This document shows, in pieces, positions 22,006 through 46,866 of a stretch of DNA of 64,000 nucleotides (the first letter of the stretch is position 1; the number at the start of each line of letters is the position of its first letter). Under the pieces are notes generated by a model. The model was not told the DNA's origin and ran no database searches. It saw only the letters and a program-made list of their open reading frames with translations. Position numbers and translations under genes: made by a program. The DNA comes from an uncultured Pseudomonadota bacterium. GTDB taxonomy: Bacteria > Oederibacteriota > Muellerivitia > Muellerivitales > Muellerivitaceae. The DNA lies in NCBI GenBank assembly GCA_963770835.1, contig CAVYRH010000003.1, positions 64,001 to 128,000 of the forward strand, written 5' to 3'.

Positions 22006-22013
22006 AGATGCGT

Positions 22014-23241: not shown

Positions 23242-23258
23242 AGTTTTGATTGATTCTT

Positions 23259-23286
23259 TGTCCGCGACGGGGACCCTTCGTGGACA
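23259..23286 (+). repeat. 28-bp site S7 TGTCCGCGACG-GGGACC-CTTCGTGGACA
   Basis: Near-consensus. Confidence 0.93.
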
Positions 23287-25584: not shown

Positions 25585-25817
25585 AAAAGCCGAAAATTGT
25601 TATTCACTTAGACGGGGGTTTAGTCCAAAGCGTTGTATCCGACCAAGGGGGAATTGATTTTAAGGTTATCGACCATGACATCGAGGGGAGCCAGGAAGGC
25701 GAGAGCCAGGTTGTTGACGGCCAGGAGGTAATCATTACTCAACACGATCGGGCAGAGAAAAACACCCGCCACGTTAAGGAGGTTTTTTCGGCCAAAAGTA
25801 ATTTCTTGGATAGATAG
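25581..25817 (+). CDS. small hypothetical MGE protein
   Basis: IVIHLDGGLVQSV..VIDHD; overlaps previous stop. Confidence 0.7.
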   Translation: MKKPKIVIHLDGGLVQSVVSDQGGIDFKVIDHDIEGSQEGESQVVDGQEVIITQHDRAEKNTRHVKEVFSAKSNFLDR

Positions 25818-25837
25818 CCAACCCCTCCAAGAGCAAC

Positions 25838-25864
25838 GCCCCCGGTTAACGCTGGGGGCTTTTT
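25838..25864 (+). terminator. intrinsic terminator
   Basis: GCCCCCGG-loop-CTGGGGGC followed by TTTTT. Confidence 0.75.
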
Positions 25865-25970
25865 GCTTTCGCAGGGTAGGGAAATGCCCCTCCCCTGGAC
25901 CCCACCCTAGCCCGGGCGGTAGATCCCCCCGGTCGCAAACAGCTTCTTTGCTGTTTGCACAACTTAAGCG

Positions 25971-26007
25971 CCTGCACATGCCTGTCGCAAAAAGGATAGT
26001 GTGCAAC
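25971..26007 (+). repeat. 37-bp repeat R7
   Basis: Exact copy; preceded by structured non-coding DNA, followed by mid-gene malectin/RHS sequence. Confidence 0.97.
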
Positions 26008-29000
26008 CCCTTTATGAGACCTGGCGCGAGGACAACACGGTGGAGTACGACTTCGACGTTCCCCCGGGCCTCTACCAGGTTAACTGCCACTGGGCCGAAA
26101 CCACCTACGATACCCCGGGTGAAAGGGAGTTCAACGTCCTGGCGGACGGCCAAACCCTGGTTTCCCCCGTGGACCTGCTCACCCTGACGCCCGAGGGTAA
26201 CGCCTACAACACGAGTTTCTACGACATAAATGTCCAACTGCCCCAACCTCAATTCCTGGGTTTGGATGGCAACGAAAACCCAATCTACAGCGCGGTGCCT
26301 CCCTATGGGATTCTTGCCCTGAAGTTCGTGAAGACCAAGGGCTCCTTGGGCGGGGCGATGATTTCGGCCCTTGAGGTCATCGGGGAACAGCCCGTGCCCA
26401 CCATCACCCCGACGGGCACTTACACCCCGCCCCCGACCATCACCTTCACCCCAACGCCCAGCCCCACGTCCACGCCCAGCCCCACCCCGGCGGCCGCCGG
26501 GCCTTCTCCGACCTACACCTTCACGCCCAGCCCAACGGGCACCCTGGTGCCTCTTACGAACACCCCAACAGCCACTCCAACTGTATCTCCCACAGCTTCA
26601 TTCACCCCCGTTACCGGAGCCTATACGGCCCGCTTGGAGATGGTTGGGCCCAACGTTGTTTCCCGGGCAACACCTGGACCACGGACCAGGAGTACAGCTA
26701 CGGCGGGGCAGGATGGCTCATCGAGGGCCAGCCCGTTTATACGACCGACCCCATTTCCGGCATAGGCCAGGCCAGCGTTTCGCTTTTCCAGTATTACCGT
26801 GAGGGCCCGGCTCCCCCGTCCGGCTTTGGCCCAGCGCTGGAATACCGCTTCGACGTTCCGAACGGCCAATACCAGGTCACCCTCAACTTCGCCGAGGCAG
26901 AAAACCTCCAAGCCGGGGCGCGAGTATTCAGTGTTTTGGCCCAAGGGCTGACGGTCATTTCCAACCTGGATATTTACAAAACGGTTGGCTTTGAGACGGC
27001 CTTGAGCCAAACCTTCCTTACCACCGTCAACAATGGAACCCTCGACCTCCAGTGGATCGCTTCGGTGGGCAACGCCACCATTTCTTCCATCCAGGTCTTA
27101 GGCCAGCAAGTACTTCAGACCCCGACATCGACCCGCACGCCCGTTTCCGGGGCCCTCGATATCCCGGTGAACGTGGGGGGAACCTCCTTCACCGATTCAA
27201 CCAACAAAACCTGGTTCGCTGACCAAGCTTATACCTCCGGTGGTTATGGTTACGTGAACCCCCAATCGGCCTTCTTCACCAGCGACACGGTGGATGGGGC
27301 GGCTCTCAAGGACCAGCCGCTTTACCAGGATTGGCGGGAAGGCACCAGCCTGGAATACGAATTCACCGTTCCCAACGGCAGCTACCAAGTGAACCTCTAC
27401 TGGAACCAGATCGCGGACACGCCCGGCGAGTATAACTTCAACGTCCTTACCCAGGGCCAGACGGTCGGCTCCAACCTTGACCTTTCCTTCGAGGGCCCTT
27501 ATTTCAGCGCCGTGACCCAGTCCTTCTACGACGCAGCCGTGACCAACGGCATTTTCGACGTCCAACTGGATTCTCCCACGGATTTCGCGGCCTTAGCCGG
27601 CATTGAGGTCATCGGGGAACAGTCCAACCCCACGGCGACCTTCACGCCCACGGCAACTCCCAGTTTGACCCCAACCGGTACACCCACAATAAGTCCCACT
27701 CCCACTGGCACTTGGTACACCTCCACGCCCACCGGAACCCCGACACCCACCGCTGTTCCACCAGCCTTGTTCGCCTCCGTGGATTACGTCCAGGAACTTC
27801 CCCCCAATTCCACCGCGACGGTCACTGCTGATGGCGCCCGGGTGACCACCCGGATCAACATCATCGGAACCGCCAACGGCAACTTCTCCCCCGCGCCGCA
27901 AGGATCGGCATCCAAAGCGGTTGGTTCCTGCTCTACCAGCCCGTCAGCGGGACGGGTACGGCGGTGACCATCGCCACGGGCACCAACCAGGTCAACGAAG
28001 GTGTCTTGGGAACCCTCGACCCGACCCTTCTCTTGAATGGAACCTATAACTTATTGCTTTTGGCCATGCAGCCGGATGGGACCAACACCAACTGGGTTGT
28101 GGCCAACATCAGCATCGACGGCAACCAGAAGGTGGGGAATTTCACCCTTTCCTTCACCGACCTTAACGTGCCCGTTTCAGGCCTCCCGATGCAAGTGGTA
28201 CGAACCTATGACAGCCGAAACCAGAACCAGGGGGATTTTGGCATCGGATGGACCCTGGATATCCACAACGTCCAGGTGGAGGAATCGGGGGTGATGGGCG
28301 ACGGATGGCAATCGGTCATTCAAGCCGGAACCGGATTAGATGGCGCGTTCAGACAAATCTTCATATCCTCCACCCAATCCCATTTCGTGGACATTGTATT
28401 GGGCAACGGAAAGGTTTACTCCTTCGAGCCGCATTTCCTGGATGTCTCAGACAACGACGTGGCGCCCGGAGGGAAGGGGGAACAGGATATATCGGGCGGT
28501 ACTTACGGGGTGTTATTCAAACCCCTGTTCGGAACCGCGCCCAACTGCACCCTGGTACCCATAGGCGGAAATGGCAAGCCTGTGACGGACGTCTCTGCCA
28601 ACAGCTCGCCCGACGTCGTTCCCGATGTGCTTAATTGGTCGGATGCTTCGGACTCGGTGAACGACATTAACGGAAGTTACGATCCACAAAGGTTCCTCTT
28701 CACCGATGAAGCCGGCAACCAGTACATCGTGAACACCTCCACGGGCCTGGAACAGATGACGGCCCTCAATGGGGATATGTTAAAAGTGGACAACGCCGGC
28801 ATCCACTGGGTCAGCGCTTCCCAAGCCGGCCATAAGGACATCCTCTTTACCCGGGATAACTTCGGCCGCATCCAGCAGATCCAGGACCCCGCGGGGAACC
28901 TGTACCACTACAGCTATACCGACGGCAAGGGCAACCTGACGGCCTTCCAGGATCCGGCGGGCGCGGCCAAGAGGGCAAATGGACACTTATACATACAACA

Positions 29001-32000
29001 ATACCCACGGGCTCTTGGCCATCAAGGACCCCCTGCTCCAGACGCCCATCCGAAACGACTACGACGCCAATGGCAGGCTCGTCGACACCTACGACGCGAA
29101 CAACAACAAGATCACCTACAATTACAACCTGGCCGCCAACAGTGAATCGGTGACCGACCGGGCGGACGCGCCCACCAGCTATGTCTACGACGACGAGGGG
29201 AACGTTACCCAGGAAACCGACCCCCTGGGCAATGTGACCCATTACACCTATTCGTCCGACGGGTTCAACAACAAGACCAGCGAGCTTTTGCCGGGCAACT
29301 CGAGGGCCAACACTTATATCTACGGCGACCCCAACAACCCCCGCAGCATCACCGAGCAGGTCGACCCCGATGGCGACAAGACCTTTTACACCTACGACGG
29401 CCAGGGCCATGTACTGACGACGACCGACCCCAACGGCAACGTGGCCACCAATACCTACGACATCCACGGAAATCTTACGTCAAGCAAGGCCGCCCAGGAT
29501 CAGCCGCCTTCCGGCTACCAGTACGACCCCAATAGCAACTTGCTCCAGCAAACCGACCCGGCGGGGATCGTGACAGCCTACGGTTACGATTCCTCGGGCA
29601 ACCAGAATGCGGTGACGGTGGCCTATGGCCGCGCCAAACAGCAGGTCACCACTTACACTTACGATTCCAACGGCAACCGTTTAAGCCAGACGCTAAACAA
29701 CCCATCCGGGTAAGGCAACCAAACAACCCTCTACCAGTACGACGGCAACAACCGGCTGGTCACCACCATCTACCCTGACGGCACCAACACCAGCACCACC
29801 TACGATGCACTGGGCCACACGGTTTCCACGACGGACCAGAAGACAAGGGTGACTTTACATTATTACGATCCCATGGGCCGTGCCACGACCATCCAATACC
29901 CCGACAACCGCAAGAGCGTATACGACTACGACGTCAACGGGAACCGCCAGGACGACACCGAATACGGCACGGATGGAATATCCCGGAATACCCATACGGA
30001 TTACGACCAGGACAACCGGCCCTACGAGGTGGACTATACCATCGGCTCGACCCAGTCAAAATACAACCCTGGCCAAGGGGCGGTAACCCAGTTCGAGGAC
30101 GAAAACAACAACTTCACCTACAAGTATTACGACCAGGCCGGCCGCGCGACGTCCATCCTCGCCGGGGCTGGGGGCATCAACCAGGAAACCCAATACGGCT
30201 ACGACCCGAACGGCAACCAGACGGCAGTTACCGTGGCGAATCAAGTGCAGTCCAACACGGGTTACGACAGCCTCAATCGGGCCGCCACCGTCACCTACCC
30301 CTCCCCAGGGACAAATGTTGCCACCCATCATCACGACCTATGACCCGGATGGGCGGAAACTGAACCAGAACGACCTGGCTGGCAAGGTGACCAACTACGG
30401 CTACGACGGCCTGGGGCGCTTGACGGGCGTAACCCTGGTTTCATCCTCCGGCAACCAGGGCGAAAGCTACACCTACGACCAGGCGGGCGACGAGTTGAGC
30501 CAGACTGACGCCAACGGCCACACCACCCGCTACACCTACGACAACATGAACCGGCGCAAGAGCCGCACCCTTCCGGGCGGCCAAAAACGAGACCTACAAC
30601 AGCTACGACGCCACGGGCAACTTGACGTCCAAGACGACCTTCAACGGCCAGGTAATCGCCTACGCCTATACCCAGCTGGACGATAAACTTCAAACGGAGT
30701 CCCTGCCCGAGTACAACATCACCTTCAATTACGACGACTTCCTTCGCCGCCAGAGCATGACGGACGTGAGCGGGACAACCACCTACAATTACGATTCAAG
30801 GGACAGGATGACGGCCAAACAAGGCCCCGAGGGCACTCTTTCCTACACCTACTACAACCACGGGGAATTGGAGAGCGTTAAATCCTCTCTACCAACGGCA
30901 CTAACGTCAGTTACACATACGACTCCCTGAACCGGCTGACGACGGTGAATGACACCCATTGGACCGGGAATACAAGTTACACCTACGACCCCTTCGGCAA
31001 CCTGGCTTCCGTCAACAAGCCCAACGGCGAATCGGTGACTTACACCTATGACGTTTTGAACCGCCTGAACAGCATGGCGGCCACGGTCAACGGTTCGTCC
31101 ATTCGTTCCTACACCTACACTTTGGGCCCGAATGGCAACAGGACAAATGTGGCCCCGCAGCTCTCCAACCGGGCCGTGACCTACACCTACGACGACTTAT
31201 ATCGTCTCACGGGGGAAATTGTATCGAGTGACCCGGCGACCCAGAATATCGGGGCCATCAGCTACCAGTATGACGCCGTAGGGAACCGCACCAACCGGAC
31301 ATCGGGGATCACGGCCATTTCAAGCCAATCCCCGTCTTATGACGCCGGTGGGGACGACCGCATGACCTCGGACGGAACTTCCAGTTATTCCTATGACGCC
31401 AACGGCTCCACCACCCAAATAGGGCCAAACACTTACGCTTTTGACAGTTTAGGCCGGATGACCCAGGCCACGGTGGGGGACCACAACGACCACTTATGTT
31501 TACGATGGCGACGGGAACAAGATCCAGCAGGTGGTGAACAACGGGACGGGACCAGTGACCACAAGTTACCTAGTGGATTCCACCAACCCCACCGGCTACG
31601 CCCAGGTGCTTGAGGAAAACCAGGGTAGCGGTGTGAATTTGGTTTACACCTATGGTTCCAGCCGGATAAGTGAAGACCAGTACAACGGGACAAGTTGGAA
31701 TTTGAGCTTCTATGGCTATGACGGTCAAGGATCAGTGAGGTATTTGACCGACTCCCGCTTGGAACTAAAACGGATACTTACGATTACGATGCGTTTGGGA
31801 CACTTATTAACCAGACCCAGCCGTGGGTGCGCCCACCCCGAATGAGTTTTTCTTCGATGCCGAGCAATTAGATGGGAATTCAGGTTTCTACAACCTAAGA
31901 GCGCGTTGGATGAATGTTGGAATTGGAAGGTTCCAAACGATGGACAGTTTTGAAGGGCGTCAACAACCCCATTGAGTTTGCATAAATATGAATTTTCAGC

Positions 32001-32620
32001 CAATAATCCGATAAATAACTCCGATTCGAATGGCCATGAGTACGACATGGGAAGCTTGTCTTTTTCAGTAGCGGTGGTTGGGGTTTTATCCTCATTTCCT
32101 ACCATTGCTAACGCTGGAACTCCCCAGGGAAAAGAAGCCGCCATTATTTTGTTGATACAAGATTTCAATAATGCTTCGGCAGATACTGGAATTAACGTAA
32201 ACGTTTTAGGTTCATTGGGATGGTCTGAAAGTCAGAAAATCCAATCAATGCACTTGGTTATTGGGATAGAAATACCCACAATAGTCCAAGGGCGCATGGA
32301 ATAATGCAGTTGTATGATGAAGATGGCAAGCCTGGAGAATATGCGAATTTAAGTGATTCCCAAAATATCGAAAAAGGAGCAAAAATTCTTAAATCAAAAG
32401 TAAGTGATGCGAAGAGAATTCACTCACTCCCTTTATGGACATAATCTAACTCCTGATGAGTTAAATGATCCTTGGTTTATACCAGTAGCTCTTTATAAGG
32501 CTAGCTTGGGACAATAGAAGAGCATGGGAAACGAAAATATACAGTTCTTGGCCCGTATGTAAAAGTCCGCAGGAAACCTCTGCGTTACTGCAAACACTTT
32601 GGAGACAATATGCAAATTAA
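26008..32620 (+). pseudogene. giant malectin-domain RHS/YD-repeat protein, 5'-truncated at R7, multiply frameshifted, with SLT-like C-terminus
   Basis: Malectin repeats (QPLY..WRE), PT linkers, RTYDSR..GDFGIGW, YD repeats, YEFSANNPINNSDSNGH core end. Confidence 0.85.
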
Positions 32621-32641
32621 GCAATCAGAAAGGATGACCTT

Positions 32642-33199
32642 GTGAAATTATCTAAAAATTTAGGTTTAATATTTTTGATTTTTATAGGTTCGGAAACAAG
32701 TTTATTTGCTGGGTCTCAAGATAAAGTTAATGTGACCATCAAGAATTTATCGATGGAAAGCCTATAAATGAATTTATTCATTTTGAGCTCATTATTTATT
32801 CGATGTCCGAAAAAGAAGGGAATAAATGGTTGTTAACCAGAAGAAACCTTTTCGACTATTGAGGATCAGAAGTATACAACCGTAAATTTGTCTCAAACCA
32901 GGTCAAATGATGATTATACGACGCCTTATATTAAAGACGTCAAATGGGTTCCTGGAAAAAAACTGAAATGCACTTATGAACCTTATAACTGTGGAATGGA
33001 TGTTAAGTTGACTGCGAAGAAGGGAAATGGCGGTAAATATGATTGGGATGTTTATTGTGTTGGTTCTTACAAAATAAATGACGTTGGTACGACACATAAA
33101 TGGGAGTTTAAAAGTACGAGAAATACGACACTCGAATTTAATAAATTGCAATTTCAAGCCATATATTACAGAAAAGATGAAAAAGGCGGGTTGAATTGA
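32642..33199 (+). CDS. exported protein, putative immunity (frameshifted)
   Basis: Signal-like start after the RHS tip; 3' ORF 32888-33199. Confidence 0.45.
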
Positions 33200-33307
33200 A
33201 AAGGCAAATTATTAAACTCTTTTCAATCATGCTTGTCATGGGATTGGTTTGCGATACCGCCTTCGCCTCTCCACAGCCTACCGCGGTCAACGTTCACATT
33301 CAGCGTT

Positions 33308-34368
<1,061 letters not shown>

Positions 34369-37246
34369 TACTTCCTATACCGATCCGGCAGGGAGGTCGT
34401 TCAAATACGCTTATGCGGCCAACGGTATCGACCTGACCAGCGTGACGGATAGCCAAGGCGACCAACTTTGGGCCGGGCAGTACAATTCCATGCATCAGCA
34501 AGTGGTAGTTACGAATGTTGCCGGAAAAAGTTGGCACTATTCCTACAATGGCTTTGGACAGCCGACAGGAATTACGGCTCCTTTAGGTGAAACGACAACT
34601 TTAAATTACGACACTAGTAATCAGCTTTCTTCCCTGATCCCACCCCAGTCCGGGGCTGGTGTGACCTTAGGTTACGATACTCTTGGCCGAGTGCAAAATA
34701 TTAGCAGTGCGGACAAAGGAACGGTTAACTACGCTTACGACGACGGGAACCGTTTGACTCAGGCTAATTACCCGGATGGAACCACTGCCGGGTTAGGATA
34801 TACCAACTGGACCCTGACCAGCGCCCAGGATCGCCTGGGCCAGACTACGAGCTTCAGCTACGATTCCAACCAACGGTTAACGAGCTCGAGAACCCCCAAC
34901 CAACAGACCACTCAATACGGTTGGAGCGCGGGGGGAGGGTTAAGCTCTCTAGCCGATCCAGCTGGAAACCAAACAAGTTATCAACGCGACCTAATGGGGA
35001 GGGTGCTGAACAAAGCTTCTTCCGATGGGTCACAATATTCCTATCGTTATGGTTCCAACGGCGGCATGCTTTCGCAAGTGACTGACCCGTTGGGCCAGGT
35101 GACCCAATATTCACACACCGTGGATGGAAAGATTTTGGGGGTTAATTATCAGAACACCCAAAACCCCACCCCTGGTACTACCTACCAATATGATTCAGTC
35201 TTGGGCAGGGTGGCAACAATGGTGGATGGAACCGGTTATACGACCTATTCCTACAACCCTGTGGGCCAGGTTGGTGGTGGATTGTTGAAATCGGTTGCAA
35301 GCCCCGTTGGCCAAACCACAGCTTTCACCACTTATGCCTACGACAGCGACGGAAGAGTGGTGCAAAGGGCCATTGACGGCGTCCCGGAGACCTATACCTA
35401 TAATTCCCAAGGCCAATTGGTGGAAGTGACCAACCCCCTGGGGGACCCCAAGTTGAGTTATGACTCAAACACGGGAAGGCTGGTTTCGGTGGCCGACAGC
35501 ACAACGGGACAAGCGACCCAATACGAATATTATAATCCTACTGATCCAAACGGGGCTTCAGGACGTTTGAAAAGCATTACCAACTTGAATAAGAGCAACC
35601 AGGCCGTTTCGTCCTTTAATTACTCCTATGACCAGCTTGGACGAATCACCAATTGGGGCCAGAGCCAAGGTGGGACGTCAAAAACCTATGCCGTTGGCTA
35701 CAATCCCGCAAACCAATTGAAGGGGGTGACGATGGTTTCGGGCACCAATGGATTCGATGGCCTCACAGCGGGCCAGGTCGTAAGTTATCAGTACGATAGG
35801 GCGGGAAATCGGGTGTCCGAAAATACTCCCACTTACCAAAATGGTTTTGGCACACCTAACAATCTTAACCAATTGAATCAAGTATCCTCAAACCCCCTGT
35901 CGATGAGCTTGATTACGGATAATTCGCCCGGTGAAGCGGCCCAGATCAATGGCCGGATGGCCCCGATTTCTGGTAATGGCACGGTAGCCTCCAGTATTGT
36001 GCCCAGCGCGAGTAGCACGACAACCAGCGCCGAGGTGGTGCTGACGGAACCCAACGGGGCCACCACCGCTGTGGGTGTAACCCTCCTCAACAAACAGCCC
36101 GTAAGTTTCGATGCCAATGGTAACTGCACTTCTGACAATCAGTACAGTTACGTGAGTGATGGGGTGAACCGGCCCATTGCTATCAATAACGGAAATGTCC
36201 TGCCCGGCGGTACGGCAGACACATTGGTTATGAAATACGACGGTAAAGGGAGGCGGGTGGGACTCACGGCCTTAAATTTGGGTGGGCCGGTGACGAACTT
36301 AAATCAACTTTCAGGTGCAGCCACGGTCTCGGGCAAGACTTATGTGTGGTGTGGGAACAGGATTTGTGAGGAAAGAGACGCAACAGGCAAACAGGTACTC
36401 AAAAGGTTCTTTTCCAACGGCGAGCAAGACAATGGACAAAACCTGTACTATACAAAGGACCATCTGGGAAGTGTTCGTGAGGTGATGGATGCTTCCGGAA
36501 ACATCCAAGGTCAGTTTGATTATGATCCGTGGGGCAGGCAGACCCAAATAGCCGGAACTATGCAGCCTTCGTTTGGCTACACTGGTCATTTTCAGGAACC
36601 GACGACAGGGTTACTGCTTTCCAAATATCGTGTCTATAACGCGGATATGGGAAGGTGGACATCGGGAGACCCAAAAGGGCAGGTCGCGGGAGCAAACATT
36701 TATTCTTATGTCAGGAATAATCCGCTTGGTAAGATTGATCAACTTGGGTTAGATGGTGATGATTACGAATCGTCTGATAACACATCGGATGAAGATACTA
36801 GTGACAATACTGTGGCTGTGGCTGGTGGAATTTTAAAATCATTTGCTGGGGTGGTTGATTTTGTTTATGGAGCGGGTGAAGTTGCTTTGTCATTAGCAGA
36901 TGAGGGAACTACAGCCCCACTTGGTGTTCTTACAATGGGCACGGGTTTTTATGATATGGTGACCGGAGCAATTCAAACGGGCGTCGATCTTGCTGGGAAT
37001 AATTATGTAGTCGATCCGGCAAGTCAACTTTTGGAACAAAAAGGATTTAGAGATTTGGGTCCAATGTTGTGGACCAGTCAGGTAGGGCTAGATGCTCTCC
37101 AAGGTACTACTGGAAATATTATTGGAGGTCTTTTAGATTTTGGAGGAATCAGTTGCGACTATGTGGCATTGCAAACTGGAGCTCAATATTATTGTCCTTT
37201 TTTGGGAACAAGCACCCCTGAAAAAAATCCATGGTATAGACACTAA
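34369..37246 (+). CDS. RHS/YD-repeat protein with RHS core and variable C-terminal tip (5' part hidden by artefact)
   Basis: YD repeats; DHLGSVR, YDPWG, FGYTGH, RVYNADMGRWTSGDP, NIYSYVRNNPLGKIDQLGL. Confidence 0.9.
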
Positions 37247-37261
37247 CAGCTAGGAGGAGAA

Positions 37262-37991
37262 ATGAATTCTCAGAGATTTTTAAAAGATCTGCTACTTTTA
37301 ATAATCATTCCAGGGAGTATCGGCGCAATAATGTTTTTTTTTAATGAAACAATTGTGAATGCTAGCATGAAATTTGCTTTTTTAATTGACAAGGATAAAA
37401 GAGAACAACATGGGAAAATGCTAAAATTGACTTATAAAAGTGTTGGGTTGGTTTGCATGTGTTTTTCGCTATTGATTCTTTTAATTGTGATTTTCTTGCT
37501 TAAAAAAAATTGATTTAACCCGTAATGAAAATTGAATTAAAGGGACGGAAATTTGAATGATTTAACGGCATATTTATTCATATCCATTATTTTAATGGCT
37601 TTGGGTATTTTTGTTTTTTTTGCAACGCGTTTTGTTTTAGATGAAGTTGGGGAAAAATTTAAGAAAAATTCAAAATTAGCAATTGGTCTCACGAATATAG
37701 GAAGTTTTTTACTGGTCTTTTTGGGAGTTTTGTTTTTGCTTAAATATTTTAATCGCATTTGATTTTAATGAACTACAACGGACTATTGGATAGAAGCATA
37801 GTAGTGATAATTTTTTCAGGTGTCTTGGGGGGGTTATTGTTTTTTATTGCCGAGCCAATGGCGAACTTTGGAAAAAGCTTCTTATTTTTTGATAGATAAG
37901 GAAAAAGAGAAGCGCGTGCAAAAAAATTAGTCAGGGTCACGAAATTCACGGGATTGTTTTTTATGTTTATTTCGTTAATGGATTTTATTTT
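37262..37991 (+). CDS. three tandem small two-TM immunity-like genes (37262-37513, 37553-37762, 37768-37991 with internal stop)
   Basis: Similar TM-basic loop-TM layout; third one abuts R8. Confidence 0.6.
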
Positions 37992-38199: not shown

Positions 38200-38587
38200 A
38201 CTCGGCTCCGATTTAAGTGAATAAAAACAACAGCTTCTTCATTTTAACAGCTTCATTATGTAGGCGTGTTCCTTGGTTTGGAGGGGTAATAAAATACAAA
38301 AGCGGTTAGGCGTTTAAACCTGACCGCTTTTAAGTGTGAAAAGTTTTGTAATTAGTTAGAAGAACCCGGAGTTTCGCCGAGAAGGTTAGAATTTTTGTCC
38401 AGCGATTGGTTGAGTTGGCTGATCTGGTCGGGTGTCAGTGAATGGCTCTTGTTCTGTTTGAAAAAAGTAAATTCCTGTAAACGGATATTCCTCAAGCTGG
38501 CCCTAACGCTTTGGGCTTGTTCCTTGGAGAATTTTCCGGATTTTACCCCCGTCTGGGTTAATTTCATTTGCGTTTTGACCCGTTGGT

Positions 38588-39117
38588 TTTTTGTTCCACC
38601 ATCGCGTTTCTCAAACGCACCACTTGCCGATCCGCTTCTTCCTGGAGGGTTGGGATCGCCACAGCCCGCAAGAGATCCTTTTCGGCGTACTCCGCCAGCT
38701 TGCGGCAGTCCAACCGGTCGGATTTTGTTTCCAACTGAGCTACACGAGGTGTTTTGTTCGGGGCGATGACGTCCAATGGGTATCCCACTTCCCGAAGGCG
38801 ACGTGCCAAGCCAAAGCCAGTAGGTCCTGCCTCGTAGACGACCTTTTTTAACCCTTTTCGGTAAGGCTCCAGAACCTTCACCACAGCTTCCCAATCCGCG
38901 GGCACAGACTTGGTTCCGGTTTCCTTTCCATTGATCCTGATTGCTACGTAAATACTTCGTTTGTGGACATCGAGCCCCACAAACACGGCGTCCCGCTTGG
39001 ATACCTCCTTGCCTTGGAATCCTTTTTTGCTAATCTGTTTCATGGTCATTCCTCCTTATGAGTGGCTACTCACCGGGAATAGTTTAATCCCGGCGGTGGA
39101 ATGGCCATCATGTTACC
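38588..39117 (-). mobile_element. truncated second copy of the IS1111-type element
   Basis: Reverse complement of ~17921-18450; left end abuts S8. Confidence 0.93.
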
Positions 39118-39145
39118 TGTCCACGACGGGGACCCGTCGTGGACA
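39118..39145 (+). repeat. 28-bp site S8 TGTCCACGACG-GGGACC-CGTCGTGGACA
   Basis: Perfect 11-bp arms. Confidence 0.95.
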
Positions 39146-39215
39146 GGGGGAGAAGTAAAGAATTGTTCACCGTGTGTAAAAAAGAGGATTTGATGACCTA
39201 TTTGGATTTAAAACA

Positions 39216-39740
39216 TTGAAAGCATTTATCATCGTTTTGATGGCTCTATTGGCTGTCAGTGTATTTTGGGAAGTTGCATCGGGGTTCTCTAAAAAACTTT
39301 TGACCAAAGATATGAATAGGATCATACAGTCTGGTTTACGCGTAAATCGCAGTTGGTTCCACCGATTGGAAAGGTTGTTAAATATACCAATCCTTTTTTC
39401 GATATATATTATTCAAATGGAATCGGTCTGGTTCCTTCGTGGGACCATCTACCCCAACCCAATGTCACTCTACCAATGGATTTGGAAACTGGTTACCAGT
39501 CCACCGGATAATCACTCGACCTTAATAGCTTTCTTGATCGCTGTTCCGGCCTTGTTTTCTTCGATCCCCCTTTCAATGGTACTTTTTAATCTGATGGAAT
39601 GGTGTATTCCGCCCCTTCGGAGATTATCTGACGCAAAAACCGGCTTTACCTTTTTGGAAGTCATGTCCCCCATGATCGCTTTAACCCTTTTGATTGTCCC
39701 TGTTTGTTTATTTTTTCAACTGCTAGGCGCTTTGGTTTAA
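39216..39740 (+). CDS. cassette: membrane hypothetical protein
   Basis: Four hydrophobic segments; between S8 and S9. Confidence 0.65.
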   Translation: MKAFIIVLMALLAVSVFWEVASGFSKKLLTKDMNRIIQSGLRVNRSWFHRLERLLNIPILFSIYIIQMESVWFLRGTIYPNPMSLYQWIWKLVTSPPDNHSTLIAFLIAVPALFSSIPLSMVLFNLMEWCIPPLRRLSDAKTGFTFLEVMSPMIALTLLIVPVCLFFQLLGALV

Positions 39741-39768
39741 AGATTTAAAATCTGAGGACGAAAAGACT

Positions 39769-39796
39769 TGTCCACGACGGGGACCCATCGTGGACA
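39769..39796 (+). repeat. 28-bp site S9
   Basis: Consensus copy. Confidence 0.95.
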
Positions 39797-40033
39797 GGAA
39801 AAAGATTGCAGAAGGCAATTAAATACGAGGAGGGCGGGGGCCAGCAAAGAAACTTTTACGGAGCTTCATTTTGCGGGCCTAGAATCAGAAAATTCGAGAT
39901 TGTGATGGAAGAAGCCGGGGTGCATTGTAAAATGAGAGACAAGTTACCCAGCAACGTTGCCGGAAAAGGTTATCTGGGAAACTCTGGTTAATCCAACTAG
40001 AGTATTTAGAATCCAAATTGAGGGGGTAATTAA

Positions 40034-40393
40034 ATGCGTTATTTGATAAGCATTGTTTTGTTAATTGCAACGACCGGGTGCGGCACCCTATTTAATAGAA
40101 ATCTAAAACCCGTAATGTTGGATTCTGATCCTCAAGGTGCCGATGTCTATGTAGATGGTAATCGTGTCGGTAAAACCCCAATAAATGTCGAGATGGAAAA
40201 AAAGCATTCTGCAAATTTAACTTTTAAAAAAGAAGGGTATGAAGAAAAAACTGCAATAATTCAATCTCAATTAGTGCCAGGTTTATTGATTCTTGATCTC
40301 TTTGGATTAGTTCCTTTAGTGGTTGATGCTGCAACGTCAAATTGGAATGATCTTGATAAAGGAAATCTCAAAGTTTTGCTGGACAAAAAATAG
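40034..40393 (+). CDS. cassette: PEGA-domain lipoprotein
   Basis: Lipobox TTGC; SDPQGADVYVDG..GKTP; KKEGYE. Confidence 0.85.
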   Translation: MRYLISIVLLIATTGCGTLFNRNLKPVMLDSDPQGADVYVDGNRVGKTPINVEMEKKHSANLTFKKEGYEEKTAIIQSQLVPGLLILDLFGLVPLVVDAATSNWNDLDKGNLKVLLDKK

Positions 40394-40460
40394 TTTTGAT
40401 AACAAAGAGTCGAACCTTAAGAAGAACAAACAGGGTTAGACACTTTCCATTTTGTCCGTA

Positions 40461-40502
40461 ACAAAAGAACCCGACTTGGGGATAAGTCGGGTTCTTTTGT
40501 TT
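40461..40502. terminator. bidirectional-type terminator hairpin
   Basis: ACAAAAGAACCCGACTT-loop-AAGTCGGGTTCTTTTGT. Confidence 0.75.
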
Positions 40503-40533
40503 TACCGTCTTTTTGAAAAACCTATAAATTAGT

Positions 40534-40561
40534 TGTCCACGACAGGGACCCGCCGTGGACA
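40534..40561 (+). repeat. 28-bp site S10 TGTCCACGACA-GGGACC-CGCCGTGGACA
   Basis: Near-consensus. Confidence 0.93.
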
Positions 40562-40676
40562 AAGCAAAATGGATTAGGGTGGCCTGAACCCGATTTTTAA
40601 TAACGATAAGGTAACTTTGCCGGCTGTGTAAGCCGAGTAGATAAATAAAGTTGATAGAATTCAATTGAGGCTGGAA

Positions 40677-41993
40677 ATGGAATCCCCACAGACAAACGCG
40701 CATCCGAAAGCACTCCTGTTTTCGGTCAGGACGCCCAAGGTGACTGATACCGAAGCGATGGAATCAATGATCGAGCTCGAACGGCTGGTGACGACCTTGG
40801 GTTACGAGGTGACCGGAACTATGTCCCAGCGGCAACCCAGCACAAAAGGGGTCACTGTGGTGGGTGAGGGAAAACTGATGGAACTCGCCCAACTCACCGG
40901 TGGAAAGGGCTACCGGGATAGGGTTAAGGGGAACTCCGAAGCGCCAAAACAGGCGCAAGTCCCGGCCTCGACTCCCGATGGACCCGCGATGGTTGTTTTT
41001 GACTGTGATTTGAGCCCGTCCCAGATTCGTAACGTCGAAGAGGCTTTGGGGGTTCCGGTGCTCGATCGAACCGGGGTGATTATCGAAATCTTCAACCGCC
41101 ACGCGAAGACCCGGGCGGCGCGGCTCCAGGTCGATATCGCGCGCCAAACCTATCAGGCTCCCCGTCTCAGGGATATGGGGGTGGGCAAGGAACGCCAGTC
41201 CGGCCGAGGATCCGGGGAAACCGTCATCGAGACGGAAAAGCGCAAAGTCCGCGACCGCCTGGCTGAGCTGAGGCACGAGTTACAAGCGGTTCAAAGGGAA
41301 GAGGAGCAACGCCGGATGAAACGCGCGGAACTGCTCGGCGCCGTGCTCGTGGGCTACACGAATGCCGGAAAATCATCCCTCATGCGGGCGCTGACCGGCA
41401 GCGACGTCCTGGTGGAGGACAAGCTCTTCGCGACCCTGGATACGACGATACGCGCCCTACAACCAGAGACCCAGCCGAGAATCCTGATCACCGATACGGT
41501 GGGTTTTATCCACAAGCTTCCGCACGACCTGGTGGCGTCCTTCCGCTCCACGCTGGATGAGGCCCGCGGCGCCGCCCTGCTTCTTTACGTGGTGGATGCC
41601 GCTGATCGCAACTTTCGTTCCCAGCTCGCGGTGGTTCGGGAAGTTTTGGGTGATATTGGCGCCGACAAAACGCCATATCTTCTCATTCTCAATAAGGCCG
41701 ACTGCTTGAGCGAATGGCAGAAGCAGGTTCTCAGGGCGGAGTATCCGGACGCGGTTTTAACCTCGACCCGCAGTCCCGAGGACATGCGGGGCGTTAGTGA
41801 ACGCATTATTCATTTTTTCGAGAAAGACATGATTGAAAAGGAGATTCTCGTTCCCTATAAAGCCCAAGGCGTCATCAGCGAAATGCGTTTGAATATGAAA
41901 ATCTTGAGGGAGAGTTTTGTTGAAGAAGGCGTTCTGCTTCTTGTTCGCGCCCGTCCGATTGACCTTCAGCGCTTGAGTAAAATGATGAAATAG
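40677..41993 (+). CDS. hflX: cassette: ribosome-splitting GTPase HflX
   Basis: LSPSQIRN, DRTGVI.EIF..HA, GYTNAGKS, LFATLDTT, DTVGF, NKAD. Confidence 0.95.
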   Translation: MESPQTNAHPKALLFSVRTPKVTDTEAMESMIELERLVTTLGYEVTGTMSQRQPSTKGVTVVGEGKLMELAQLTGGKGYRDRVKGNSEAPKQAQVPASTPDGPAMVVFDCDLSPSQIRNVEEALGVPVLDRTGVIIEIFNRHAKTRAARLQVDIARQTYQAPRLRDMGVGKERQSGRGSGETVIETEKRKVRDRLAELRHELQAVQREEEQRRMKRAELLGAVLVGYTNAGKSSLMRALTGSDVLVEDKLFATLDTTIRALQPETQPRILITDTVGFIHKLPHDLVASFRSTLDEARGAALLLYVVDAADRNFRSQLAVVREVLGDIGADKTPYLLILNKADCLSEWQKQVLRAEYPDAVLTSTRSPEDMRGVSERIIHFFEKDMIEKEILVPYKAQGVISEMRLNMKILRESFVEEGVLLLVRARPIDLQRLSKMMK

Positions 41994-42054
41994 TGCCCTG
42001 CGGTGTGTCCCGGACGGGCCCGCAAGCTCGGCCGATAAGAAATTGTCCACGACG

Positions 42055-43995
42055 GTGCGTCCAGAAAAGGCAGGTGTGTTCAGCAAGAGATAGTCTTGCA
42101 TGGGTAATAGCCAAAGCCCATTAGCTAGGATGGCAGGCAAGCGGGAAACCAAATGCCTGAAGCCCATCAACAAAGCCATCGAAAGGATGGTGAGCGAGTC
42201 GTCGGGCCGTAACGAAAGTAAATGCACAGGTGGCCCCGAAAACACTTGCCTCGGAGGCTGAGTCCGCCGTCGTGGGACGAAAGCATCATGGGACAGCGCG
42301 GAGAAATGGCTGAAGCGCTGGAACACTCCGACGGGGTGATAGCAACGGCACGAAGACAAGGACACGCCAAGCAACTGGAGAAACCCTCCTTGCCCCAGGC
42401 AGAAATGCTTGGAGAAAGGTAGGCCGTATAACCGTGACGCGGGAAAACGGTCGAAGGTGAGAGGGTTTAGGATGGGTTCATGGTAGCGATGAAGCGGGGT
42501 AATGCCCGTGGAGCGAAGGAACCCTGCTGTTGTTAAGTCCCTCGACAAAACGGAAGGCAGTGACGGTATGAAAAAGACGTCAATTAACCTGCAAGACCTG
42601 AGACGAGAGATATACGTCAAAGCGAAGGCTGAAAAGAACTGGAGTTTCTGGGGACTGTACACCCATGTTTGCAAGATGGAAACGCTTCAACAGGCTTACC
42701 GAATGGCTAAGGTAAATAACGGAGCCCCTGGAATAGATGGGGTGACGTTTGATGCCATTGAGGAGGCCGGAGTGGAGTCGTTTCTGGAAAGCATCCGGGG
42801 TGAATTAGTTCAAGGCACGTATAAGCCCGTTCGAAACCGGAAGAAGGAAATACCCAAGGGAAATGGGAAGGTAAGAGTCCTTGGGATACCCAACATTCGG
42901 GATAGAGTAGTCCAGGGAGCACTGAAGTTTATTCTGGAACCGATTTTTGAGGCCGATTTTCAAGAAGGGTCCTATGGGTATCGACCCAAGCGGACCGCTC
43001 ATGCGGCTGTGAACAGGGTAGCATCGGCAATCGTCTGTAGAAAAACCCGAGTCATTGATGTAGACCTCAAGGCATATTTCGACACGGTAAGGCACGACCT
43101 TCTGATGAAGAAAGTTGCCCGAAGGGTTGAGGATGAAACGGTGTTGAGATTGTTGAGGATGATCCTGAAGGCCAGCGGCAAAAGAGGAGTCCCGCAGGGA
43201 GGGGTTATTTCCCCTCTTCTGGCTAATCTCTACCTCAACGAGGTGGATAAGATGCTGGAAAAGGCAAAAGAAGTGACTCGGCAAGGGAAGAACAACTATA
43301 TCGAATATGCGAGGTTCGCTGACGATATGGTGATCCTTGTTAATGGATATCCGCAATGGGAATGGTTGGCAAAGGCTGCCTACCGAAGGTTACTTGAAGA
43401 ATTGACCAAGCTCGACTTGCAAATCAACACGGACAAGACGCGGATAGCAGACTTAACGAAAGGTGAAAGTTTCGGGTTTCTGGGGTTTGACTTTCGACAG
43501 GTGAAAACCCGTCGAGGGAAATGGGGGGTGAAGTTCACGCCGAAAATGAAGGCGCGAGCAACACTTCTGGGTAAGCTCAAGGAAACATTTGGAAGCTTCC
43601 AATCTCAGCCGGTGCAGAGGGTGATTGAGATTATCAATCCCAAACTGCGTGGGTGGGTGAATTACTTTCGGATAGGGAATTCTAGGCGCTGTTTTAACTA
43701 CGTGGAAAGATGGGTCGAGAATAAAATCAGACGGCATATGATGCGTGCGAAGAAGCTCGACGGTTTTGGGCGGGATAGGTGGAGTAGGGAGTGGATATAT
43801 AAGTATCTGGGGTTGTACAGAAGCTACCAAATACGATATTACCAAGAACCGAAAGCGCTACCCGTCTGATAGGTCACATAAACTTTGACAGGAAAGCAAC
43901 AGGTGAGCGTAGTGCGGGAAATCCGCACGCTACGTTCGAGGAGGCGGGGACTGGAAACGGAGCCAGAAGGCCACCGCACCAGTCCTCGACCCTAC
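42055..43995 (+). mobile_element. group II intron with RT/maturase
   Basis: 5' GTGCG, 3' CCCTAC, domain V GAGCGTAGTGCGGGAAATCCGCACGCTACGTTC (~43905-43937). Confidence 0.95.
42568..43869 (+). CDS. ltrA: group II intron reverse transcriptase/maturase without endonuclease domain
   Basis: APGIDG, R.LGIP..RDRVVQ, GVPQGGVISPLLAN.YL, RFADD, LRGWVNYF. Confidence 0.95.
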   Translation: MKKTSINLQDLRREIYVKAKAEKNWSFWGLYTHVCKMETLQQAYRMAKVNNGAPGIDGVTFDAIEEAGVESFLESIRGELVQGTYKPVRNRKKEIPKGNGKVRVLGIPNIRDRVVQGALKFILEPIFEADFQEGSYGYRPKRTAHAAVNRVASAIVCRKTRVIDVDLKAYFDTVRHDLLMKKVARRVEDETVLRLLRMILKASGKRGVPQGGVISPLLANLYLNEVDKMLEKAKEVTRQGKNNYIEYARFADDMVILVNGYPQWEWLAKAAYRRLLEELTKLDLQINTDKTRIADLTKGESFGFLGFDFRQVKTRRGKWGVKFTPKMKARATLLGKLKETFGSFQSQPVQRVIEIINPKLRGWVNYFRIGNSRRCFNYVERWVENKIRRHMMRAKKLDGFGRDRWSREWIYKYLGLYRSYQIRYYQEPKALPV

Positions 43996-44053
43996 GGGAC
44001 CTGTCGTGGACAAAAAAATAAGGCGGAAGATACTATTCAAGTGGAGGAAGGGA

Positions 44054-46234
44054 ATGATGATGATCGGATTCAGATTACTCATGGATATGGCAAAGGGACA
44101 CCGGTATTGGATGTCCGCGGCGGCCCTTTTCGGCCTCGTGCCGCCCTTAGGGGCCGCGACCTACTATGTCTCCCCTTCCGGGAATGATGCCGGTCCCGGA
44201 AGCCAAACCCAACCCTTCGCCTCCCCGCAAACCGCCGTCACTCACCTGGCGCCCGGCGACACCCTGGTGTTCCGGCAAGGGACTTACTACGGTTCCATTA
44301 TTGTCCCCCAATCCGGATCAGCCGCATCCCCCATCACCCTGGAAGCCTATCCGGGTGAAACGCCGCTACTCGACGGCGCCGGTCCCGTCACCGGTGCTTG
44401 GAGCCATTACCAGAGTTCCATTTACCGCGCCCCTTGGGCTTCCCAGCCCGCCCAGGTTTTCTGTGACGGCCACCTTCTGAATGAAGCCCGCTGGCCCGCC
44501 GCCGAGGTGGAGGGCCTCAGCCACCAACCCGTGGCCCTCGCTGACTCGGGGTCGGCCAGCCAGGTCACCTGCGCCAATCTTCCCCGGGTGGACCTGACCG
44601 GCGCCCTCATCCAGCTCATGGCGGGCCAATCCTGGTGCTCCTATACCCGTACCATCGTTTCCCATGACCGGCCTAGGGGCTCCCTGGTTTTTGATTCCCC
44701 GGTGAGCGAAATGGCAGCCTTGGTGCCGCGCCGGGGAACCCGTTTCTACGTCTTCGGCAAACTCAACCTCTTAACCGCGCCGGGGGAGTGGTATTGGGAC
44801 CCGCAAAAAAAAGAACTTTACGCCTGGACCCCGGATGGCGCCCCGCCCCAAGGCCGCGTGGAGGCCGGGGACGCTTCCCCGGTCCTGTCCCTGGACGGAC
44901 AGTCTTATATCACGGTCAAGGGGCTGCAGGCCCGGGGCGGATGGTTTTCCCTTTCCAACAGTTCCCATTGCACCGTCCAGGATTGCCGCCTTATCGCCCC
45001 CAATTGGACGAGAATGATGAATGGTTACGTCACCAAACCCGCGACCCTGGGCGGCATCGACATTTCCGGCGCCGACAACCAATGCCTGGGCGGGTCGGTG
45101 GTCTTCGCGGGGCGCAGCGGCGTCGATCTTTCCGGCGGAAGCGGCCACCTGGTCAAGGGCATGAACGTGGAGGATTGCGGCTGGAACTGGGGCAATGACG
45201 GGGGCATCCACGTGATCCACGCCGACCAGTGCGTTGTCCAATCCTGTACCGTCCGGCGGGTGGCCCGGGTGGGCATCTTCGACTATTACTCCACCTCCTG
45301 CCGGTTCCTCAACAACCTAGTCGAGGACGTCTGCCTTTACAGCGACGACGTGGGCAATTTCGACTCTTGGGGCACGGACGGCAAGGGCAGTGAAATCGCC
45401 TACAACCTCATGCGCGGCAACCGCGGCATGTGGGGCGCGGGCATCTACCTGGACGACAACGCCAAGGGCTTCAATGTCCACGACAACGTGGTCGAGGATT
45501 GCGCCTGGTACGGCTTTAAATTCAGCGATGTGGATAGGCTCGAAAACAACACCGCGTTAGGTCCGGGCCACGGGGCCCTTTACTGCTCCCAGCCCGCGAG
45601 CAAGGACCTGACCGGCTCCAAGGTGGCCCATAACCGGTTCCGGGAAACCTTCCCGGTGCGGGTCAACTTCAACCAGGCCTCGGTCACCGATTATGGTTAC
45701 TACGGGGGCTACGCCTACCTGGGCGCCCCCGGCCGCGTGGAGGTGGATTGGGGCCAATTGGAACAGCCTTGGTGGGCGGTAAAGGTTCCGCTCGACTTAA
45801 CCCAGATCCCTACCATCGCCTTCAGCATTGAATGCCTGGCCGACTCCTTTACCTTCACGGTGGCCAATTTGCGGCTCCTGCCCAAGGGCCTAAAGGGGGA
45901 TGACGGCGCCGTGACCCTGGCGGGAAACTGGTTTTCCTACGCCGGGCAGGGCGCTACCTCCACCTTGAGCCTTTCGGGTCCGGCGACCTGGGGCGCGACC
46001 GGAAAAACCGTCGTGGGCGGCTGGAACTCCACCGGCCTTCCCCTCACCGGCAGCCAGAGGGACCTGACCGCCTACCGGGGACTCGCCTTTGAGATCGGCG
46101 GAACCGCCGTGATGAAATACAACCTGAATGGATGCGTCGACGAGGATAACGGCCCCGATCCCAAGCCGGGCCGGGGCGCCAGCCTGCCCATCACCGTGGG
46201 GGCCGAAGGGTTAAGGGTCGGGCCGGTCCCCTAA
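44054..46234 (+). CDS. cassette: secreted right-handed parallel beta-helix (carbohydrate-active-like) protein
   Basis: TYYVSPSGND..PG, PGDT..R.GTY, EARWP, GIYLDD motifs. Confidence 0.85.
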   Translation: MMMIGFRLLMDMAKGHRYWMSAAALFGLVPPLGAATYYVSPSGNDAGPGSQTQPFASPQTAVTHLAPGDTLVFRQGTYYGSIIVPQSGSAASPITLEAYPGETPLLDGAGPVTGAWSHYQSSIYRAPWASQPAQVFCDGHLLNEARWPAAEVEGLSHQPVALADSGSASQVTCANLPRVDLTGALIQLMAGQSWCSYTRTIVSHDRPRGSLVFDSPVSEMAALVPRRGTRFYVFGKLNLLTAPGEWYWDPQKKELYAWTPDGAPPQGRVEAGDASPVLSLDGQSYITVKGLQARGGWFSLSNSSHCTVQDCRLIAPNWTRMMNGYVTKPATLGGIDISGADNQCLGGSVVFAGRSGVDLSGGSGHLVKGMNVEDCGWNWGNDGGIHVIHADQCVVQSCTVRRVARVGIFDYYSTSCRFLNNLVEDVCLYSDDVGNFDSWGTDGKGSEIAYNLMRGNRGMWGAGIYLDDNAKGFNVHDNVVEDCAWYGFKFSDVDRLENNTALGPGHGALYCSQPASKDLTGSKVAHNRFRETFPVRVNFNQASVTDYGYYGGYAYLGAPGRVEVDWGQLEQPWWAVKVPLDLTQIPTIAFSIECLADSFTFTVANLRLLPKGLKGDDGAVTLAGNWFSYAGQGATSTLSLSGPATWGATGKTVVGGWNSTGLPLTGSQRDLTAYRGLAFEIGGTAVMKYNLNGCVDEDNGPDPKPGRGASLPITVGAEGLRVGPVP

Positions 46235-46337
46235 ACGGTTCTTTTCAAATAGCTGGCATATCCTCTTTCAATGAGCCCCCTCAATTCCAAGGGAGTTTGA
46301 GGAGAACTAGGGGGGAAGGCTGGCAGCCAATTTGGCT

Positions 46338-46365
46338 TGTCCACGACGGGGACCCGCATTGGACA
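46338..46365 (+). repeat. 28-bp site S12 TGTCCACGACG-GGGACC-CGCATTGGACA
   Basis: Degenerate right arm. Confidence 0.9.
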
Positions 46366-46415
46366 AAGAAAAAGGCTCAATAACACCACCCAATATGAAA
46401 GGGATTATTTTGTGA

Positions 46416-46820
46416 ATGAAGTATTTAAAAAAATATAAAAAATACCTCCTAAATTCGATGGAATTTCTTATGCCGTTAATAGAATTTGGCGATTTTATTA
46501 CAGCCGCCGACCAGGATGGTTTCGCTATCAGCGCTATCGAAGGAAGGGAAAAAGCCTTGTTTAGTAAAAAACATCATTTTCGATCTGACATGTATATTAT
46601 TTTTTTGCCTAAGAAAAAGAACCCAGGTTGGGAGAACTTCAAGAACCATTGCAATATAAATGCGGAGAGATGGTATTCGAAGATGATAAAGAAAAGATTT
46701 ATTTTGGGTAATCCCCTACCGATAAATGCAACAAAACGAATTTTAATTTGTTCGTGTTTAGTGGATAAAGCGCAATGGATGAAGGATTATCGAAAGAAAC
46801 GCATTAAGACAATAACTTGA
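46416..46820 (+). CDS. cassette: AT-rich hypothetical protein
   Basis: Single ORF between S12 and S13. Confidence 0.6.
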   Translation: MKYLKKYKKYLLNSMEFLMPLIEFGDFITAADQDGFAISAIEGREKALFSKKHHFRSDMYIIFLPKKKNPGWENFKNHCNINAERWYSKMIKKRFILGNPLPINATKRILICSCLVDKAQWMKDYRKKRIKTIT

Positions 46821-46838
46821 GAACTGATAGCGAACTGT

Positions 46839-46866
46839 TGTCCACGATGGGGAGCCGCCGTGGACA
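46839..46866 (+). repeat. 28-bp site S13 TGTCCACGATG-GGGAGC-CGCCGTGGACA (last site)
   Basis: Abuts the core envelope locus. Confidence 0.88.

Follow-up and report, generated by a model that had tools for sequence, protein, structure and literature searches.

What fixes the position at which a group II intron enters a repeated 28-bp site, and what does its entry do to that site? The question is raised by a stretch of 64,000 nt, here called the window (contig CAVYRH010000003.1, assembly GCA_963770835.1), from the genome of an uncultured soil bacterium (G000; other G codes stand for relatives, L codes for loci or regions). Within it, an intron of 1,941 nt splits a 28-bp palindrome of the kind found between small gene cassettes. 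A preliminary description of this DNA had equated the entry point with the cleavage position of a tyrosine recombinase. Our analysis makes another answer rather probable: a IIB intron of group g2, whose exon-binding sites EBS1 and EBS2 face bases 1-11 of the site, retrohomes by ordinary pairing, and a shortened serine recombinase cuts the site at its central GA, not where the intron enters.

Boundaries and class of the intron

Excision of 42055-43995 (GTGCG...CCTAC) joins TGTCCACGACG to GGGACCTGTCGTGGACA and rebuilds a 28-bp site one base off the consensus, which the intron splits after base 11 (the 11/12 junction). Shifting both intron ends by one base gives the same product; the GTGCG...AY ends are obtained only in the register 42055-43995, and this register was found in all ten site-borne copies of G000. 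Independently, the hflX cassette upstream of the intron recurs in G004 (94% identity); the site that ends it there is intact and holds no intron, and its neighbour downstream is another one. In the DNA run X6 a single contig joins 42054 to 43996, with a short side of 29 letters and a depth of 3.8, which alone would carry little weight. Copies, G004 allele and contig agree, and the boundaries given in the preliminary description, together with the restoration of the site, are exact.

The features of the locus are as follows (RT, reverse transcriptase; ORF, open reading frame; IBS, intron-binding site).

42044-42054, plus strand: left 11 bases of the split site, with IBS1 (42049-42054) and most of IBS2 (42043-42046)
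42055-43995, plus strand: 1,941-nt group II intron with a IIB ribozyme (group g2 / class F sensu lato), from Rfam, junction, copies and RT tree
42232-42267, plus strand: delta' (42232) and delta (42267) pair, IIB configuration, from co-variation
42242-42245, plus strand: EBS2 (ACAC), pairing at three of four bases with the site and four of four with the IS5 target
42268-42274, plus strand: EBS1 (42268-42273, CGTCGT) with one more pairing base, the seventh, all within the hairpin 42262-42278, from co-variation with shuffle control
42339, plus strand: EBS3 (A), a mismatch to G of the site and a match to T of the IS5 target
42568-43869, plus strand: RT/maturase ORF, 433 aa, FADD, no endonuclease domain; an in-frame upstream ATG also at 42502
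43903-43995, plus strand: domains V and VI (Rfam match 43903-43979)
43996-44012, plus strand: right 17 bases of the split site, with IBS3 at 43996 and the predicted serine crossover GA at 43998-43999

The element has the parts of a group II intron, namely GUGYG...AY ends, domains I and V/VI and an RT/maturase ORF. Rfam places domain I at 42081-42217 (121 bits) and domains V and VI at 43903-43979 with 39.9 bits, slightly below the gathering score of 40. The ORF matches the group II RT/maturase model TIGR04416 of NCBIfam (378 bits) and the Pfam domains RVT_1 and GIIM; a domain search gave no match to an endonuclease domain in it. In RT5 it carries FADD, which PMC3552965 reports as a motif of group g2. 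The RT is 50% identical to that of B.th.I3 and forms a clade with it at 100/100, apart from the g1 and g3 references, in a tree that holds a single g2 reference and no members of classes C, D, E and g4. An EBS1-IBS1 pairing of about 6 bp, an EBS2-IBS2 pairing, an EBS3 that reads the 3' exon and an internal delta-delta' pair are those of a IIB intron. By these sequence features the intron is classed as IIB, endonuclease-less, of group g2 (class F sensu lato), and not as IIC-attC: EBS2 is present, EBS1 spans 6-7 bp, all oriented insertions are sense and the site is not attC. Class E, our first guess, was dropped after the RT tree and the FADD motif.

Exon-binding sites and targets

A minimum free energy fold of the 5'-terminal 506 nt, although significant (z -3.3), lacked the hairpin GTCC-GCCGTCGTG-GGAC at 42262-42278, whose loop had been proposed as EBS1; co-variation was used instead. 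From 72 introns with a usable 5' end, cut or unalignable ends being left out, 59 distinct rows were obtained. They are related and thus not independent, with 21 EBS1 variants among the 59 introns, and the kept rows L013, L047, L104, L114 and L115 are off-register or misaligned and depress the score. The best partner columns of exon positions -1 to -7 are 42268-42274. Mean EBS1-IBS1 pairing amounts to 5.19 of 6, compared with 3.50 for shuffled exons (maximum 3.95 in 2,000 shuffles), and six of six bases pair in at least eight EBS1/IBS1 combinations that differ clearly from one another. Exon positions -10 to -12 find their best columns at 42243-42245 (EBS2) and exon +1 at 42339, which pairs in 74% of 54 rows (EBS3). 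Delta (42267) and delta' (42232) are Watson-Crick in all 58 rows with a base there, and this pairing rules out the IIA type, in which delta reads the exon. The layout is the IIB scheme of PMC7923331 and PMC4424553. The loop 42268-42273 is established by this co-variation as EBS1.

This copy fits the cassette site at six of six EBS1 bases plus the seventh pair and at three of four EBS2 bases, with a mismatch at EBS3; at an IS5-like target the corresponding values are five of six, four of four and a match. The combined IBS2 and IBS1 motif occurs 123 times on both strands of G000, 88 of them inside sites, and IBS1 alone 2,457 times. The 11/12 position is set by the end of EBS1, not by a recombinase.

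G000 contains 12 full copies of the intron. As 11 are identical and one differs by a 1-nt insertion, a recent spread is indicated. Ten copies lie at the 11/12 junction on the top strand; they are counted as at least eight distinct insertions because the C3:1721 and C24 copies have 847 nt upstream in common and may be one locus, and the left flank of the C11 copy is only 10 nt. The other two (C26:594362 and C5:342182) are antisense in an IS5-like transposase gene, six uninvaded copies of which remain. Depth over the intron is several times the flank depth in the DNA runs X1 and X2. A DNA match to the intron was found in 10 of 30 other genomes of the family, and in five of these genomes the 5' junction of a relative is at 11/12: G020 (95%), G021 (94%), G002 and G030 (both ORF-less) and G014 (5' end of a tandem fragment). 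The nearest records that carry a name belong to candidate division FCPU426, the probable affiliation of the host family. The flanks of the closest homologues, ORF-less or broken ones included, thus lead to the same base of the same site, as the preliminary description had anticipated. The G014 locus (L016, G014:C7) has two ORF-less copies head to tail, the first of which stands at 11/12 and begins GCGCG.

All 13 distinct insertions at 11/12 (eight in G000, five in other genomes) are sense, with 40 targets on the bottom and 72 on the top strand; for the eight events the chance of an all-sense outcome is 0.03. Any one of three causes could underlie this bias: the direction of the fork, recognition of the 3' exon by the protein, or selection.

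The 28-bp site and the short serine recombinase

The site consensus TGTCCACGACGGG-GA-CCCGTCGTGGACA is a perfect 13-2-13 palindrome around GA, and the division into 11-bp arms and a 6-bp spacer was a choice of the preliminary description. The window has nine intact sites at up to 3 mismatches (0.01 expected by chance) and G000 has 88 at up to 7 mismatches; the strict pattern is present in 24 of 30 other family genomes and in 0 of 30 outside the family. Variation was analysed in 439 sites, drawn from G000 and from regions selected because known sites lie in them, relatives not being represented by their whole genomes. Bases 12, 13, 14 and 15 vary in 9, 6, 9 and 6 of them, base 16 in 60; in the central dinucleotide, G14 is kept in 430 and A15 in 433. 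Base 16 is linked to 17, 18, 21 and 22, is unlinked to 10 and travels with the right arm. Cassette exchange across the site is directly visible in shared cassettes, where a base-11 variant keeps with the upstream cassette and base-16/17 variants accompany the downstream one.

Thirty non-intron orphan arms point to the place of exchange; shuffled sequence gives 0-5 by chance. Twelve stop after base 15 (among them one at the G027 intron fragment described below and one hairpin insertion), nine after 11-13 and seven after 18-19, several of these at hairpin insertions; two are reverse readings, and none of the 30 stops at 14, 16 or 17. Symmetric arms, a conserved asymmetric dinucleotide and a central exchange (13-GA-13; 12 of 30 orphan breaks) are the features of a serine crossover site. 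With base 16 varying in 60 of the 439 sites and breaks clustering after 15, the site does not have the features of the Xer/dif type, a 6-bp spacer that needs homology and is cut at its edges; exchange of the top strand only stays compatible with the data. In G027 (L260, G027:C3:167001-176000, reverse strand) a truncated intron copy (about nt 2-1497) lies between site bases 1-15 and 16-28 and is thus joined after base 15, the predicted serine cut, in what is a single event.

Variants that break a hairpin at bases 19-22 occur without compensation in about a third of the sites, which rules out hairpin extrusion as a conserved feature. Small hairpin elements are themselves found inside the site, after base 10 or near 16-19 (G000 C5:308118, C5:317908, C11:105383 and C11:115068), and insertions of the same kind at L028:831 and in L282, L285 and L295.

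The only resolvase-family gene of G000 (C17:12078-12905) encodes 275 aa with Resolvase and Recombinase domains and ends 14 nt from a reversed site. Its 19 closest homologues (68-100% identity) all have 275-283 aa, and in none of these 19 is a zinc ribbon or coiled-coil C-terminal domain present; the next 101 homologues mostly have 450-570 aa. The linkage of the short clade to the sites is tight. In family genomes, 14 of 14 short-clade 3' ends examined abut a reversed site (five whole genes and nine remnants; one site is intron-split), and 0 of 9 loci of full-length or other relatives have a site beyond the 3' end. Three of four short-clade metagenome loci show a site or half-site directly after the stop codon, and one full-length metagenome locus has a weak site-like match. 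On the metagenome contig L161, a variant palindrome with changed arms and the same central GA directly follows a short recombinase gene.

In the LI integrase, the recombinase domain has a 13-bp contact area, and deletion of the coiled coil allows recombination of all four site pairs in cis and makes excision promiscuous (PMC3783163). By analogy, these data fit the 13-GA-13 geometry. Altogether, the short recombinase likely drives the cassette system and would catalyse its exchange at the GA.

Cassette arrays and other elements at the site

The arrays are made up of single genes or toxin-antitoxin-like pairs, all pointing the same way and separated by direct-repeat sites; two such arrays lie in the window.

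39118-46866, plus strand: array that includes the intron, its intact sites being at 39118, 39769, 40534, 46338 and 46839, from the site scan
40562-42043, plus strand: upstream cassette with hflX (ORF 40665-41993), known from G004 with an uninvaded site
44013-46337, plus strand: cassette downstream of the intron, with a beta-helix protein (ORF end at 46234); its fusion with the hflX cassette is predicted
16556-23286, plus strand: second array, sites at 16556, 17487, 17893, 19904, 20584 (27-bp variant), 22014 and 23259, from the site scan
17921-19290, plus strand: IS110 directly after a site, right end approximate
20611-21410, plus strand: ORF-less lineage B intron, ends TCGTG...CTGC, EBS1-like loop TGTCTA, at the right site edge (28/+1)

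The same cassettes are met again in other places with new neighbours, to the left and to the right of the site, which shows rearrangement at the sites. The hflX cassette (40665-41993) is common to G004 and G023, and two sites upstream of it a 119-aa ORF (40034-40393) has its first 70 residues in common with a G004 ORF. No IntI integrase was found above the cut-off in G000 (best score 44.6, cut-off 265 bits). The attC cores RYYYAAC/GTTRRRY and the length variation of attC are absent from the fixed 28-bp consensus; this comparison was made by consensus, no attC model being run. Two other groups of proteins were set aside, namely two long helix-turn-helix-like proteins upstream of two arrays (no informative Pfam hit, inconsistent placement) and the multi-copy island integrases of about 370 aa, which are mostly far from sites. 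Between the two arrays, RHS/YD-repeat genes lie in several pieces at 25600-37300; about 970 consecutive T followed by A/T runs at 33310-34380 in this region are likely an assembly or sequencing artefact.

Besides the main intron, two further lineages enter the site. Lineage B (G000, G027 and G002) does so at 28/+1, a position fixed by an uninvaded G004 allele, and lineage C (G004 and G014) at 19/20. The RTs of the three are mutually 36-46% identical. The EBS1-like loop of lineage B is complementary to the site end, and lineage C has TGGGTC in the matching region (by inspection only). Lineage B has non-canonical ends, 5' TCGTG or GCGTG and 3' CTGC, and every 3' flank seen starts with A; in G000 (window 20611-21410, C11:107.4k, C3:39.4k and C2:200.6k) it comprises about ten ORF-less copies of 800 nt and several with an RT. 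A B-related intron with 80% RT identity lies outside recognisable sites at G000 C2:233k and C19:426k, after an exon that ends in TGACA. An inverted, truncated copy of IS110 stands directly before another site, at about 38200-39117.

Weighing of the readings

Several observations weigh against homing by pairing combined with a serine cut at GA. The shared-cassette variants bound the exchange only between 11/12 and 15/16, and eight orphan arms stop at base 11-12. Since 10 of the 12 base-15 stops have G at base 16, the commonest variant there, some of them may be decayed sites. The EBS3 mismatch runs through the whole G000/G020/G021 clade, and a G024 relative with the same EBS1 lies off-site. A spliced joint was not found in the RNA run X17, in which the locus is barely covered (share of words 0.08), a result that speaks neither for nor against splicing. 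A complete short recombinase was found in only 5 of 25 site-bearing genomes, with no hit in the site-rich G023, G025, G018 and G012, and at the metagenome locus L160 the site is about 150 nt off and in the other orientation. Without its zinc ribbon the LI integrase binds about 25-fold more weakly, and its coiled-coil deletion fails at intermolecular integration (PMC3783163); the analogy thus does not account for the integration of cassettes.

It is quite unlikely that the site is instead an 11-6-11 tyrosine-recombinase site, similar to Xer/dif modules, with the intron entering at the top-strand scissile bond. Its length of 28 bp is that of dif, a cut at 11/12 is compatible with the shared-cassette variants, and the eight arms ending at 11-12 would suit it. 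A single Xer-like gene, whose gene context is shared by G000, G004 and G006, could act in trans in genomes without the serine enzyme. It lies 44 kb from a site, however, and of the 12 tyrosine-recombinase hits in G000 one has its nearest site at 1.4 kb, nine at 9.7 kb or more and two none detected on the contig. Base 16, in the supposed homology spacer, is among the variable ones, the largest class of breaks falls after base 15, and the sites are direct repeats. EBS pairing explains the register anyway. With other introns using 19/20 and 28/+1, three different entry bases are in use, and the coincidence of one of them with a hypothetical tyrosine cut carries little weight. The identification of the insertion point with such a cut is therefore not upheld. 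The single Xer-like gene of G000, divergent and located at L118:4054-5118 (G000:C11), has a neighbourhood conserved across the family.

Less improbable, but still unlikely, is a two-target generalist that gathers in repeats matching its EBS1, so that its fit to the site would reflect saturation of an abundant target and not specialisation. Two of the 12 copies are in the IS5-like gene, where EBS2 and EBS3 fit better, G030 has two sister introns (78-81% identity) with other EBS1 loops, and for most relatives of 57-79% the target is domain V of another group II intron, as read from their flanks. On the other hand, the same EBS1 is kept in introns 82-100% identical from eight genomes, and the oriented insertions are all on the top strand despite the 40 bottom-strand targets. 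Because the 82-84% relatives combine EBS2 ACAA with EBS3 C, a full fit to the site, the G000 clade has drifted away from the site optimum. The specialisation claimed in the preliminary description is only partly supported, in view of the IS5-like insertions, the EBS3 mismatch, the G024 relative and the loops in G030.

We give very little credit, slightly less than to the tyrosine reading, to the palindrome being a regulatory repeat like repetitive extragenic palindromes, or a transcription hairpin, with the short recombinase belonging to an element that inserts there and no cassette fusion taking place. The recombinase, whose activity is predicted only, borders ArdC/RadC-type cargo, is missing from many site-rich genomes and lies between two sites in G000. 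Against this speak the uncompensated variants at bases 19-22, the co-orientation of sites with single genes or toxin-antitoxin-like pairs, and the recurrence of identical cassettes in new surroundings. No RAYT was found above the cut-off among five proteins scanned, the genome not being searched for it.

Homing by pairing at a serine-recombined site, the reading preferred here, would proceed by the endonuclease-less pathway, in which the intron reverse-splices into DNA laid open by the replication fork and priming takes place at the fork (PMC4424553). Splicing from cassette transcripts would leave a sense insertion nearly harmless at the RNA level. At the DNA level, only 3 of the 13 left-arm bases stay with the right remnant, and the GA is lost from the left one; for this reason the loss of one 13-bp binding arm is expected to weaken or silence the site. 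With the site silenced, the hflX cassette and its downstream neighbour would become one unit. Inactivation of the site by the intron is a reasonable prediction, and fusion of the cassettes is likely. Since orphan half-sites suggest that one good arm with GA can still recombine, the split site may not be fully dead. The wider picture, towards which we lean with more reserve, is a serine-based cassette "integron" made of other parts, in which a naturally truncated large serine recombinase shuffles the cassettes. Its site would be an insertion target of such age and safety that three unrelated intron lineages have evolved RNA guides to different bases of it, 11/12, 19/20 and 28/+1, all sense and thus able to splice out, together with IS110, and the g2 intron would lock cassettes at the DNA level with expression intact. 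By the preferred reading, what is described here is an ordinary homing mechanism acting on an undescribed, probably serine-driven cassette system.

Comparison with known systems

The literature contains IIC-attC introns, isolated IIB introns in attC arrays and insertion sequence (IS) elements that target pdif sites (PMC7923331, PMC4424553, PMC10132070); in the literature covered, which included few subscription journals, no description of the present site, short recombinase clade or intron was found. Parasitism of cassette sites by introns is known mainly from the IIC-attC introns of integrons. Such introns (S.ma.I2, Ge.s.I1; PMC7923331, PMC4424553) likewise occupy sites between gene cassettes, and the analogy drawn in the preliminary description is apt at the functional level. 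It does not extend to the mechanism: IIC introns use a 3-4-bp IBS1 and a DNA stem-loop, have no EBS2 and lie antisense in attC, whereas the intron here has a 6-7-bp EBS1 and an EBS2 and lies sense in a site that is not attC. UHB.I2 (CL1/IIB1) and H.ha.F1/F2 (class E) are also IIB introns in cassette arrays, UHB.I2 also sense (PMC7923331). They are reported as single or fragmented copies beside attC, with unconserved flanking exons for UHB.I2; here, in contrast, one fixed base is invaded in six genomes with co-varying EBS. With the g2 introns B.th.I3, Mx.xa.I1 and W.e.I5 (PMC3552965) the element shares FADD, an RT-X protein of about 435 aa, the lack of an endonuclease domain and a IIB ribozyme of 1.9-2.0 kb. 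The targets of those introns in Table S2 of that paper are transposases, a hypothetical gene and non-coding DNA; here the target is the recombination site of a cassette array.

The arrays resemble integrons and clusters of attC sites lacking integrases (CALINs) in their co-oriented one-gene cassettes, toxin-antitoxin-like pairs, direct-repeat sites and many arrays without a nearby recombinase. They differ in that no IntI lies above the cut-off, the core and the variable length of attC are lacking, the 13-2-13 site is fixed and a serine enzyme is convergent at the downstream end. Acinetobacter dif modules with pdif-targeting IS1202 elements (PMC10132070) are similar as site-bounded modules into which elements land at fixed distance and orientation; that system is a XerC/XerD tyrosine one, and it is parasitised by IS elements where introns do so here. 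Large serine integrases (LI/A118, TP901-1; PMC3783163) have resolvase and recombinase domains, a catalytic Ser motif, a central dinucleotide and a 13-bp footprint in common with the short enzyme. Unlike them, all 19 members of its clade are naturally devoid of the coiled coil and the zinc ribbon, and its partner sites are near-identical repeats, not attP and attB.

Seen against these systems, a IIB intron would here parasitise cassette sites by plain base pairing in a system apparently without integron parts, and the intron habit would be convergent, with three or more origins at a single 28-bp site. A natural EBS1/EBS2/EBS3 code of g2 introns can be read from the series of homologues and is of use where an endonuclease-less intron is to be retargeted. 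Should the 275-aa recombinase act on identical 28-bp sites, it would represent in natural form the truncation that is crippled in the LI integrase, and would be a compact recombination tool.

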